Shown here: piece by piece, positions 34,732-35,235 of the stretch
Layout of the letters: every line of letters begins with the position of its first letter
Position numbering within the stretch: the stretch's first letter is position 1
Source of the DNA: Escherichia phage ph0011
Length of the DNA: 64,000 nt
Sequence record: OP557969.1
Reading direction: 5' to 3' (one strand)
The notes under the pieces: generated by a model
The model's input: only the letters and a program-made list of their open reading frames with translations
Told to the model about the DNA's origin: nothing
Databases searched by the model: none
Translations under genes and position numbers: made by a program

Positions 34732-35235
34732 ATGAAATCTATTATTGCCAATAACGAAATCACCGCAAAAACTGTCCGTCTCGTAACGGAAGGAACCAGT
34801 GAGGTAATGGCAATCTCTAAAGCACTAACTTTGGCAGAAAATCAAGGTTTGGATTTGGTAGTTATCGGTACTGGCGACGAGCCTGTTGTAAAAATTACCG
34901 ATCTTAACAAATACAAATACGAATTGAAACAAGCAGAAAAAGCATCTCTTAAAAAACAGCGTCAGAATGCAATTAGTGTTAAAGAGATTCAATTCAATTT
35001 TGGTACACACGAACATGATTTGAAAATTAAAGCAAAAAGTGCAGAGAAATTCCTAGATGAAGGAAAGCATGTGCATATTGTGATGAAAACTTCAGGACGT
35101 GGAACGAATGCATCTGTAATTCAATCAAATATTAATGCAATGGAATCATTCGTTAATCGTTTGGGTAACGTTTCATATGTTCAAAAAGTAGAGTTCCAAG
35201 GTAAGAAGGTAACCTGTACTGTCAAAGTAAAATAA
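34732..35235 (+). CDS. infC: Translation initiation factor IF3 homolog
   Basis: Collinear with bacterial IF3 over N and C domains: [22 protein letters not shown]...[35 protein letters not shown]. Confidence 0.7.

Follow-up and report, generated by a model that had tools for sequence, protein, structure and literature searches.

The gene at positions 34,732 to 35,235 on the forward strand of the window, by which we mean the entire stretch of 64,000 nucleotides from Escherichia phage ph0011 (OP557969.1) that was analyzed, encodes a two-domain homologue of bacterial translation initiation factor 3 (IF3). Judging from its sequence and predicted structure, the protein is probably (at roughly 60%) a working IF3 of the Rak2/121Q phage lineage that works on the 30S subunit of its host in the manner of the cellular factor. 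IF3 is essential in bacteria, where it governs start-site fidelity and how many free 30S subunits are available, and the presence of a viral copy throughout a phage lineage therefore points to initiation as a real bottleneck or control point in infection. The identity of the gene as such was already known from GenBank records, from PHROG 9787 and from several papers. New here are the perfect promoter in combination with a GGAG/ATG start, a loop remodelling that characterizes the phage clade, and the deep contiguity of the genes for IF3, a ClpS-like protein and a KTSC-domain protein.

The reading frame begins with ATG and comprises 167 codons and a stop codon. The original prediction held that its product is collinear with bacterial IF3 across both domains, and profile searches, sequence comparison and fold all agree with it. 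As evidenced by the HMM analysis, the Pfam profile IF3_N matches residues 7-71 (E = 3.7e-17; 62.7 bits, cut-off 26.9) and IF3_C residues 81-165 (E = 1.6e-13; 50.8 bits, cut-off 34.8), while the NCBIfam equivalog model TIGR00168 (infC) is matched over model positions 7-154 of 170 with 111.6 bits (cut-off 60), so that both domain profiles and the infC model score above their curated thresholds. PHROG 9787, 'translation initiation factor', is covered from position 1 to 167 of 168 (E = 1.7e-70). A phmmer search against the sequences in the PDB retrieved IF3 from E. coli (8jsg, E = 3.3e-17) and T. thermophilus (5lmn_X, E = 7e-17) with alignments that are collinear across both domains, and the identity to E. 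coli IF3 is 38% over 120 residues (BLASTP). The AlphaFold2 model of the protein has a mean pLDDT of 90.6, and a pTM of 0.56, so that it is uncertain how the two domains are placed with respect to each other. When this model was compared to the PDB with Foldseek, the top matches were all IF3, namely the ribosome-bound factor 5lmn_X over its full length (TM 0.71), the C-terminal domain 1tig (TMt 0.84, rmsd 1.9 Å) and the N-terminal domain 1tif (TMt 0.77), and the predicted fold thus corresponds to IF3 in either domain. Among 1.84 billion representative proteins, six reached an E value of 1e-30 or better against the phage sequence.

The window derives from a jumbo phage of the Rak2/121Q type. A stretch of 4 kb around the gene shares 89.6% DNA identity with Asteriusvirus-type jumbo phages such as 121Q, PBECO4 and slurp01, the nearest records, and the DNA around IF3 diverges by about 10% from every record; the neighbourhood is typical for a phage, with genes for ribonucleotide reductase, DHFR, RNase H, Dda helicase and topoisomerase II. 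Within this group, IF3 is a conserved core gene under strong purifying selection. The comparison with 121Q yielded a dN of 0.022 and a dS of 0.542 (dN/dS about 0.04), the gene is found in phages of Escherichia, Salmonella, Klebsiella, Cronobacter, Erwinia, Serratia, Yersinia, Pectobacterium and Xanthomonas, and metagenomic relatives with IF3 identities down to 37% hold it at the same genomic position. Note that a pseudogene or chance reading frame was ruled out by this dN/dS ratio, by the intact frame with its Shine-Dalgarno sequence and by the conservation across genera. A recent capture from an enterobacterial host was ruled out as well, given the low identity to the E. coli protein, the mere six proteins that reach an E value of 1e-30, and the fact that the nearest relatives share the phage gene order.

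The architecture of the protein follows that of E. coli IF3 in its distribution of charge, with an acidic N-terminal domain (residues 1-57, IF3_N; positions 34,732-34,902, forward strand; net charge -3), a basic, lysine-rich linker (residues 58-80; 34,903-34,971, forward; net charge +5) that in the model forms a helix from residue 58 to 79 between two alpha/beta domains, and a basic C-terminal domain (residues 81-167, IF3_C; 34,972-35,232, forward; net charge +6). Unlike E. coli IF3, the phage protein has no basic tail at its N-terminus, and a deletion of two residues in the N-terminal domain takes out the loop of Q33, a residue whose role in IF3 has been described (PMC9723500). Arginines 25 and 66 of the E. 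coli protein, which contact the elbow of the initiator tRNA (PMC9723500), are kept as R16 and K54. The linker is two residues longer than in E. coli and includes Y63, the equivalent of Y75, which stacks on C701 of h23 and helps to determine fidelity (PMC5037330, PMC7145577); the E. coli allele infC362 is the variant Y75N (PMC7145577). In the C-terminal domain, residues K94, E95, D106, K110, F117, G121, V124, G132, R133 and G167 (E. coli numbering) are all retained, with D96, K100 and G122-R123 of the phage protein corresponding to D106, K110 and G132-R133. Of the 39 sequences in the phage clade, 36 to 39 retain the equivalents of R25, R66, Y75, D106, K110 and G132-R133. This clade keeps every position that is at least 70% conserved among 133 other IF3s, a set drawn from the sequences nearest to the phage query and including further phage-like sequences such as P0064 and P0067, so that residue frequencies in it are not those of an unbiased bacterial sample. 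Per-site conservation in the two sets is correlated (Spearman 0.59, p = 2e-16), without a single site that varies freely in the phage clade while being conserved in the other IF3s.

Against this background of conservation, the loop and helix start predicted to lie beside the start codon (residues 120-131 by residue alignment; positions 35,089-35,124, forward strand) are remodelled. Three residues, VIQ, are inserted after the GR motif, and R99-P100, R131 and E134 of the E. coli protein are gone, their places at 99, 131 and 134 being taken by N89, S121 and G124. In none of the 39 phage-clade sequences is position 99 basic, and in a single one position 131, as compared to 52% and 84%, respectively, in the query-selected set of other IF3s described above, in which position 134 is E, Q or D in 86% of cases. 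Within the phage clade, position 99 is occupied by T, S, N or A, and position 131 by V, Q, A, S, T or I. The counterparts of R99 and R131 in T. thermophilus are Arg91 and Arg123, according to a numbering offset deduced from the phmmer alignment, and in 30S pre-initiation complexes both contact nucleotides of the start codon, with hydrogen bonds to A+1 and U+2/+4 of the mRNA, while Arg123 and Gly124 touch mRNA nucleotides +2 and +4 (PMC5037330). The signature of lost R99, R131 and E134 together with the insertion marks one clade of about 60 sequences in the neighbour-joining (NJ) tree, and all four of its members that were checked for context are found in phage gene order. The C-domain arginines of IF3 were reportedly subjected to mutagenesis by Petrelli et al. 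(2003, in J Mol Biol). As positions in the FRGRE motif are frequent, not invariant, in IF3, their loss marks a subfamily and leaves family membership intact. With R99, R131 and E134 lost, binding or fidelity could differ substantially from canonical IF3, and the remodelled loop hints that inspection of the mRNA start region is to some extent tuned in a phage-specific manner, in either direction.

A predicted sigma-70 promoter at positions 34,659-34,687 on the forward strand, TTGACA-17 nt-TATAAT, matches the consensus in 12 of 12 positions of the sequence scan; its -35 hexamer shares nucleotides with the stop codon of an upstream 64-residue reading frame, and transcription is predicted to start around position 34,694, which leaves a leader of about 38 nt. 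The window contains four such perfect matches, all on the forward strand, where 0.23 were expected on both strands from 300 Markov simulations, none of which reached four. The promoter is identical in 121Q, and promoter-like sites are located in the same place in RaK2 (TTTACT-17-TATAAT) and GAP32 (TTGACT-16-TACAAT). We infer from these features that the site is used as a promoter; the related phage PA5oct relies on host RNA polymerase (PMC7318152). A Shine-Dalgarno core, GGAG, is read at positions 34,718-34,721 of the forward strand, 10 nt 5' of the ATG. It is invariant in five aligned phage orthologues and precedes the IF3 gene in 13 of 13 phage contexts inspected. In the window, 121Q, RaK2, GAP32 and XaC1 the gene starts with ATG, and the eight other phage-context genes start with GTG or TTG in the calls of the gene finder; note that such programs never propose ATT, yet GGAG is found at Shine-Dalgarno distance from every called start. 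An autoregulatory AUU or AUC start was thus not found in these 13 genes, all of which were called with ATG, GTG or TTG. Bacterial infC starts with AUU or AUC, which is stated to be universal and mediates the autorepression of IF3, with the cellular factor amounting to about 0.15 copies per ribosome (PMC5499595). In vitro, an excess of IF3 of up to 10-fold over ribosomes reportedly left the translation of the mRNAs tested without significant change (PMC5499595), which weakens the case for an effect of dosage alone. For the phage's own genes, 75 ATG, 3 TTG and 1 GTG starts were counted among 79 called (about 95% ATG) with ordinary Shine-Dalgarno sequences of the AGGA/GGAG type, an approximate count obtained with a Shine-Dalgarno-based script that is not a trained gene finder and is blind to ATT. 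The idea that the phage relies on non-canonical start codons, as might go along with a relaxed IF3, is unsupported in view of 75 ATG starts. Searches near the gene returned no Rfam match at gathering thresholds and, with ARAGORN, no tRNA.

Bacterial genomes typically carry an infC-rpmI-rplT operon. Neither an L35 nor an L20 gene is found beside the phage IF3, which is followed instead by genes for a ClpS-like and a KTSC-domain protein. The ClpS-like protein (181 residues; positions 35,249-35,794, forward strand) lies directly 3' of IF3 and has an N-terminal extension of about 70 residues. It matches PHROG 15940 with an E value of 1.8e-94 and E. coli ClpS with 28% identity over 87 residues (BLASTP, E = 7e-6), and its hit to the Pfam ClpS profile (E = 5.2e-4; 20.2 bits) falls below the cut-off of 23. 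In the BLASTP alignment, DDPTTHA of the phage protein is placed opposite the NDDYTPM motif of E. coli ClpS, which we take to be the N-degron pocket. For the positional orthologues in distant relatives, a PF02617 match is on record that is not marked as weak or faint. The KTSC-domain protein, likewise of 181 residues (35,868-36,413, forward strand), is a clear member of its Pfam family (E = 1.4e-13; 50.8 bits, cut-off 25). The gene order in the window, Dda helicase, a reading frame of about 190 and one of about 64 residues, IF3, ClpS and KTSC, is matched in 121Q, RaK2, GAP32, XaC1 and four metagenomic contigs, and the last three genes remain contiguous, with order and strand unchanged, even at 37-44% IF3 identity. 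In Atu_ph07 and in Sinorhizobium phage Phosso, a gene for a Clp ATPase is located directly upstream of IF3. Iyer et al. have proposed that phage ClpS delivers targets to the host ClpAP protease, and have grouped IF3 and KTSC as possible factors of translation or ribosome rescue (PMC7824862). It appears improbable to us that IF3, the ClpS-like adaptor and KTSC constitute one takeover module, in which an IF3 freed from autoregulation and bearing a remodelled start-codon loop is joined by a Clp adaptor that removes or remodels a host translation component, possibly host IF3, so as to reprogram mRNA choice by the 30S subunit. If this were true, it would be a first among viruses, a defined case in which a bacterial initiation factor is swapped out.

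Building on the observed homology and fold, the conservation of functional residues, the purifying selection and the regulatory signals in the sequence, we propose a mode of action for the phage protein as a working IF3. Unmodified host RNA polymerase would transcribe the gene from the consensus sigma-70 promoter, and the mRNA would be translated from a GGAG/AUG site that is free of the AUU or AUC codon used by cellular IF3 for self-repression. The C-terminal domain and the basic linker would then bind to the platform of the 30S subunit and the top of h44, the N-terminal domain would contact the elbow of the initiator tRNA, and the bound factor would block premature joining of the 50S subunit and help to dissociate or recycle idle 70S ribosomes. 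Early in infection, an unregulated rise of the IF3:30S ratio, normally about 0.15, may keep many 30S subunits free and ready for initiation, and such a pool would favour fast initiation on canonical messages with a Shine-Dalgarno sequence and an AUG codon, a description that holds for nearly all phage genes. Binding to the 30S subunit, early expression and an effect on initiation are what we infer here from sequence features. The further suggestion of the original prediction, that the protein changes the selection of start sites or mRNAs, is a plausible hypothesis. A search of the literature yielded annotation-level mentions as the only treatment of phage IF3, and a search for transcriptomic data on the Rak2-like group brought up nothing on IF3.

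Several other explanations have to be weighed against that of an additional working IF3. One of them assumes that the phage protein competes with host IF3 and, by means of its remodelled loop, applies other start-site rules that shift initiation towards the phage or away from the host. The clade-wide loss of the equivalents of R99 and R131, whose T. thermophilus counterparts bind start-region mRNA (PMC5037330), would fit this, as would the lost E134 and the three-residue insertion, which together mark one NJ clade with phage gene order in four of four cases. The variation of positions 99 and 131 inside that clade, however, has the appearance of relaxed constraint and not of a newly selected contact, and position 99 is basic in only about half of the other IF3s to begin with. 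The conserved residues linked to fidelity, R25, Y75, D106, K110 and R133, are all retained, per-site constraint tracks that in other IF3s (rho 0.59), which also argues against any radical change of function, and the start sites of the phage are so ordinary that no feature was found that would distinguish its mRNAs. We therefore consider such a shift unlikely, albeit worth keeping in mind. The loss of R99, R131 and E134, the altered loop and the substantial divergence from host IF3 might also be taken to indicate a decoy, which would occupy the IF3 site on the 30S subunit but be defective at a later step and thereby shut off host translation, or else a general RNA-binding protein acting off the ribosome. 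Yet a blocker of the IF3 site would halt translation of the phage as well, as its mRNAs use the same Shine-Dalgarno and AUG signals, and strong purifying selection on the domains, the linker and the tRNA-elbow contacts in the pattern of other IF3s is unexpected for a simple plug, so that we give this explanation hardly any credence.

The protein might instead be a replacement, resistant to a process by which host IF3 or another translation component is removed or disabled, be it ClpS-directed proteolysis by ClpAP or a host defence, and thereby sustain initiation. The adjacency of IF3, ClpS and KTSC, preserved in order and strand down to 37-44% IF3 identity, the Clp ATPase gene directly upstream of IF3 in Atu_ph07 and Phosso, the absence of the N-terminal tail of host IF3 from the phage protein and the delivery of targets to ClpAP proposed by Iyer et al. 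(PMC7824862) are all in line with this possibility. But gene order in a vertically inherited block for replication and nucleotide metabolism may as well reflect shared ancestry and joint transcription, nothing was found to indicate that ClpS/ClpAP or any defence system acts on host IF3, and the ClpS-like protein remains under the Pfam cut-off, with DDPTTHA in place of NDDYTPM; on balance a replacement seems rather improbable. Somewhat less doubtful, if still unlikely, is a role in the reactivation of idle ribosomes, where extra IF3 would split hibernating or idle 70S particles and displace RbfA and similar factors from the 30S subunit, enabling replication in slow-growing or stationary hosts. 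Residue Y75, which is needed for displacing RbfA from mature 30S subunits (PMC7145577), is kept as Y63, the related phage Sharanji encodes a protein of the S30EA/HPF family along with other translation-related genes (PMC11895373), and expression free of autoregulation would suit a demand for IF3 when host synthesis is low. This role is conjectural, though, and would be a special case of a working IF3 that does not compete with it.

Three hypotheses emerge from the analysis: an escape from AUU feedback, a clade-specific remodelling of the loop, and a deeply rooted adjacency to a Clp adaptor and KTSC. Old reports hold that the specificity of IF3 is altered by infection with T4. If the phage protein does alter the choice of start sites or mRNAs, it would bear on these reports and provide a natural probe of IF3 fidelity; if it merely supplies extra IF3, it would be an ordinary auxiliary gene.

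With bacterial IF3 (infC; TIGR00168; PF05198 and PF00707), the phage protein has in common the two-domain layout with a lysine-rich helical linker, the pattern of charges, all widely conserved residues including R25, Y75, D106, K110 and G132-R133, and the fold of each domain (rmsd about 2 Å); examples of the family are the IF3s of E. coli (8jsg) and T. thermophilus (5lmn). It differs, at 38% identity to the E. coli protein, in the missing basic tail, a Q33 loop that is two residues shorter, the loss of R99-P100, R131 and E134 and the three residues inserted after the GR motif. Its gene differs from cellular infC in the ATG start and in its location between a small reading frame and the ClpS-like gene.

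Among other phage factors, bS21 and the ribosome-targeting early proteins of phiKZ have been proposed or shown to target initiation or the small subunit of the host very early in infection (PMC7162821, PMC10914614). These proteins are unrelated to phage IF3, and neither a bS21 gene nor a phiKZ-type factor was seen near IF3 in the window; the phiKZ factor is absent from Sharanji according to its authors (PMC11895373). Two close IF3 homologues, P0064 and P0067, do adjoin bS21 genes, on contigs that lack the infC-rpmI-rplT context. Two-domain IF3s are also borne by the phages Atu_ph07 (gp001) and Sinorhizobium phage Phosso and by the LR7565xx genomes of Al-Shayeb et al. (2020), and IF3 of huge phages is considered part of a takeover of translation (PMC7162821). 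These proteins are only 34-42% identical to that of the window and their genes have GTG starts; in Atu_ph07 and Phosso the neighbouring gene is a ClpX-like ATPase upstream of IF3, in contrast to the ClpS-like gene downstream of it in the window. The closest counterparts are those of the Rak2-like phages, where the annotation as IF3 dates back to RaK2 and GAP32 and has appeared in print (PMC5259590, PMC7824862, PMC11895373). 121Q gp47, the proteins of PBECO4 and slurp01 (infC), Sharanji WNN14575.1, RaK2 ORF153, GAP32_313 and CBB_318 are orthologues with 54-96% protein identity and the same length, genome position and neighbours, and the copy in the window, at 96.4% identity to UE-S1 and 95.2% to 121Q, is a slightly diverged allele that is functionally no different from them.

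The gene at 34732-35235 on the plus strand begins with ATG, is preceded by a GGAG that we read 10 nt 5' of this codon, and encodes a homologue of translation initiation factor IF3 of 167 aa. This identification is solid. The original prediction of a phage IF3 homologue collinear with the bacterial factor across both domains is borne out by all three sequence comparisons: Pfam places IF3_N at residues 7-71 (62.7 bits, cut-off 26.9) and IF3_C at residues 81-165 (50.8 bits, cut-off 34.8), the NCBIfam equivalog TIGR00168 (infC) is matched with 111.6 bits (cut-off 60), and phmmer against PDB sequences aligns E. 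coli and T. thermophilus IF3 at ~1e-17 with both domains collinear. The predicted fold agrees as well, so that neither of the outcomes that would have spoken against the prediction, a lack of IF3 profile matches or a different fold, was observed. An AlphaFold2 model calculated with 31 homologues as input has a mean pLDDT of 90.6, and all 22 Foldseek matches in the PDB with E <= 0.001 are IF3 or mitochondrial IF3; the model matches full-length ribosome-bound IF3 (5lmn_X) with a TM of 0.71, the isolated C-terminal domain (1tig) with a TMt of 0.84 at 1.9 A, and the N-terminal domain (1tif) with a TMt of 0.77.

The 4 kb around IF3 share 89.6% DNA identity with Asteriusvirus-type jumbo phages of 350-380 kb (for example 121Q, PBECO4, slurp01, Sharanji), and the phage probably represents a species of its own, either in Asteriusvirus or close to it. 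Note that for the query 33000-37000 this was the highest DNA identity among 50,697 phage records, with an IF3 protein 95-96% identical. The gene lies in a T4-style block for replication and nucleotide metabolism, nearly all on the plus strand, that includes both ribonucleotide reductase subunits, a MazG-like protein, DHFR, RNase H, a Dda-like helicase and both topoisomerase II subunits. A word-indexed protein search with the window IF3 gave 46 matches and defined a phage clade of 38 clusters with 46-95% identity, a length of ~167 aa and both domains in all cases. In an exhaustive search only 6 proteins among 1.84 billion representatives reached E <= 1e-30, and BLASTP aligned E. coli IF3 with 38% identity over 120 aa. 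From these sequence relationships we conclude that the gene has long belonged to the phage lineage and was not captured recently from the host. Against 121Q, dN is 0.022 and dS 0.542 (ratio ~0.04), with similar values in neighbouring genes.

For the analysis of individual residues we built an alignment of the window protein, 43 other members or closest representatives of the phage clade, 132 further IF3 homologues and E. coli IF3, whose numbering is used here. At all positions conserved to at least 70% in non-clade IF3s, the phage clade has that residue too. Among those kept are R25 and R66 (as K), two contacts of the initiator tRNA elbow that influence fidelity (PMC9723500), Y75, a classic fidelity determinant that stacks on C701 of h23 (PMC5037330, PMC7145577), and D106, K110 and G132-R133. 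As evidenced by per-site entropy, conservation in the clade follows that in other IF3s (Spearman 0.59, p 2e-16), and this comparison revealed no site conserved elsewhere but variable in the clade. The charge pattern is that of E. coli IF3, with an acidic N-terminal domain and a basic linker and C-terminal domain. Kept residues, entropy correlation and charges together point to the constraints of a working IF3.

Other elements have changed. The window protein has no basic N-terminal tail, and a 2-aa deletion removes the loop of Q33, the least important of three tRNA-elbow contacts (PMC9723500). In the C-terminal domain, the segment beside the P-site codon is remodelled in the phage clade: R99-P100 is replaced by (T/S/N/A)-x in 39/39 members, and the GR motif is followed by a three-residue insertion. 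A basic residue is missing from position 131 in 38/39 members and E134 is lost, versus a basic residue at 131 in 84% and E/Q/D at 134 in 86% of other IF3s, a set that is skewed toward the query's own relatives and includes other phage-like sequences. The insertion occurs in 55/177 aligned sequences, almost all within one neighbour-joining clade of ~60 sequences that holds the window protein. In T. thermophilus 30S pre-initiation complexes four residues abut the start codon, Arg91, Arg123, Gly124 and Arg159; of these, Arg91 hydrogen-bonds A+1 and Arg123 either U+2 or nucleotide +4 (PMC5037330). In the phmmer alignment, with a constant +1 numbering offset, Arg91, Arg123 and Gly124 match E. coli R99, R131 and G132; Arg159, in a segment beyond the aligned region, is probably R168. 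Positions 99 and 131 differ among members of the phage clade, a pattern that resembles relaxed constraint. Two homologues of the comparison set, P0064 and P0067, have a canonical FRGRE-type loop and lie outside an infC-rpmI-rplT context. Both are neighbours of genes for ribosomal protein bS21, directly adjoining in L013 (419-1192); in L014 (841-4687) a faint YonV_C match is also found; both contigs are probably other phages with an IF3 and bS21 pair.

A perfect sigma-70 consensus promoter, TTGACA-17-TATAAT, is predicted at 34659-34687 (plus strand). The sequence scan of the window located four perfect TTGACA-(17/18)-TATAAT sites, all on the coding plus strand (19536-19564, 34659-34687, 50417-50445 and 52841-52870), where first-order Markov simulations lead to an expectation of 0.23 on both strands and 0/300 runs reached four. 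These are probably the strongest host-polymerase (early) promoters of the region. 121Q carries the IF3 site without a single change; RaK2 and GAP32 have recognisable promoter-like sites at the equivalent position. A further sequence, TTGACA-17-TATGAT (11/12) at 34463-34491, overlaps the start of a 64-aa ORF (34468-34662); a transcript from it would start inside this ORF, and it may be a chance occurrence or an internal promoter. Given these sites and the reliance of a related phage, PA5oct, on the RNA polymerase of its host (PMC7318152), early transcription of IF3 by the host enzyme is a reasonable inference. The start codon is ATG in 5/5 aligned isolates and, as called, GTG or TTG in eight further phage-context IF3 genes, each with GGAG at Shine-Dalgarno distance. 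In all bacterial species infC is reported to have AUU or AUC as its start codon, through which IF3 represses its own synthesis; cellular IF3 is held at ~0.15 per ribosome (PMC5499595). With ATG, GTG or TTG in place of AUU or AUC, the phage gene is, to judge by its start codons, free of the feedback control imposed on cellular IF3.

The best-supported reading is a working IF3 that is made early and free of feedback, a statement to which, taken as a whole, we assign a probability of roughly 0.6; its core, a functional 30S-binding IF3, is predicted with considerable confidence. Such a protein would raise the ratio of IF3 to 30S, keep subunits free and ready for initiation and favour canonical messages with a Shine-Dalgarno sequence and AUG, a type that nearly all phage genes fit, with ~95% ATG starts according to an approximate Shine-Dalgarno-based caller. 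One indication against a pure dosage effect is that in extracts up to a 10-fold excess of IF3 over ribosomes reportedly did not significantly change translation of the tested mRNAs (PMC5499595). The stronger claim of the original prediction, that the phage factor alters start-codon or mRNA selection, could draw on the remodelled loop on the start-codon side, but we found no feature that sets phage mRNAs apart and consider it unlikely.

A different alternative, likewise judged unlikely, arises from the neighbourhood, namely that host IF3 or another translation component is disabled, for example via a ClpS-like adaptor and ClpAP, and the phage IF3 substitutes for it. The order Dda helicase, ~190-aa ORF, ~64-aa ORF, IF3, ClpS-like, KTSC is shared by 121Q, RaK2, GAP32 and XaC1, and it recurs on four metagenomic contigs, where IF3 has only 37-44% identity to the window protein. 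The last three genes are adjacent in the same order and strand in the window (34732-36413) and in comparison loci L001-L004, L006, L007, L008, L011 and L012. This persistent adjacency is the basis of the substitution scenario and the most suggestive unexplained feature, and a functional link among the three genes is possible; yet it may reflect vertical inheritance and co-transcription only. The ClpS-like gene (35249-35794, plus strand) encodes 181 aa, of which ~70 form an N-terminal extension, and scores 20.2 bits, just under the Pfam cut-off of 23. Its positional orthologues measure 107-112 aa (L006, L007, L008; close to E. coli ClpS in length), 149 aa (L012) and 186 aa (L011), all with a PF02617 match on record that is not marked weak or faint. 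Since BLASTP aligns NDDYTPM of E. coli ClpS with DDPTTHA, substrate specificity may differ. The KTSC-domain gene (35868-36413, plus strand) has its domain at residues 20-75, followed by ~100 aa with no Pfam match, and belongs to PHROG 8113, a family with no assigned function; the label 'DnaJ-like' in 121Q is unsupported by the Pfam scan. Note that in some distant relatives, at L007 (9401-9952), L008 (9401-9952) and L011 (6610-7173), the next gene 3' of KTSC encodes an Fe/Mn superoxide dismutase C-terminal domain; this gene is absent from the matching place in the window.

IF3 is already known and widely annotated in the Rak2/121Q group, and the window copy is a slightly diverged allele. The protein is matched in 97 phage records by tblastn, many of them labelled IF3 (121Q gene 47, slurp01 infC, Sharanji infC, RaK2 ORF153, GAP32_313, Serratia BF, Yersinia fHe-Yen9, CBB, Xanthomonas XaC1), and it matches the dedicated PHROGs family phrog_9787, 'translation initiation factor', over its full length (1.7e-70). 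The CBB paper lists IF3 in CBB, GAP32, 121Q, PBECO4 and Rak2 (PMC5259590), Iyer et al. regard group 2.2 jumbo-phage IF3 and KTSC as possible ribosome-rescue or translation-support factors (PMC7824862), and according to the Sharanji paper the function 'cannot be definitively stated' (PMC11895373). Al-Shayeb et al. see the IF3 genes of huge phages as belonging to a takeover of translation (PMC7162821). We found no experiments on any phage IF3 in the literature searched, and IF3 is absent from a 2026 review of jumbo-phage biology. The escape from AUU/AUC, the phage-type loop signature and the deep IF3-ClpS-KTSC order were not found stated in the literature consulted. These details sharpen hypotheses on the role of phage IF3, a genuine question that standard IF3 assays can address, and none of them alters the kind of gene, which is still a known phage IF3.

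Cellular infC stands in an infC-rpmI-rplT context, whereas the phage gene lies outside such a context. In two distant jumbo phages, Atu_ph07 (L005, 1673-3495) and Sinorhizobium phage Phosso (L010, 2655-4501), a gene for a 419-aa ClpX-like ATPase is found directly upstream of IF3, and in Atu_ph07 a ClpS-sized 'ATP-dependent protease' of 100 aa (L009, 2272-2574) lies a few kb from IF3 across the start of the circular record, so that IF3 and Clp components co-occur in a second group of phages.
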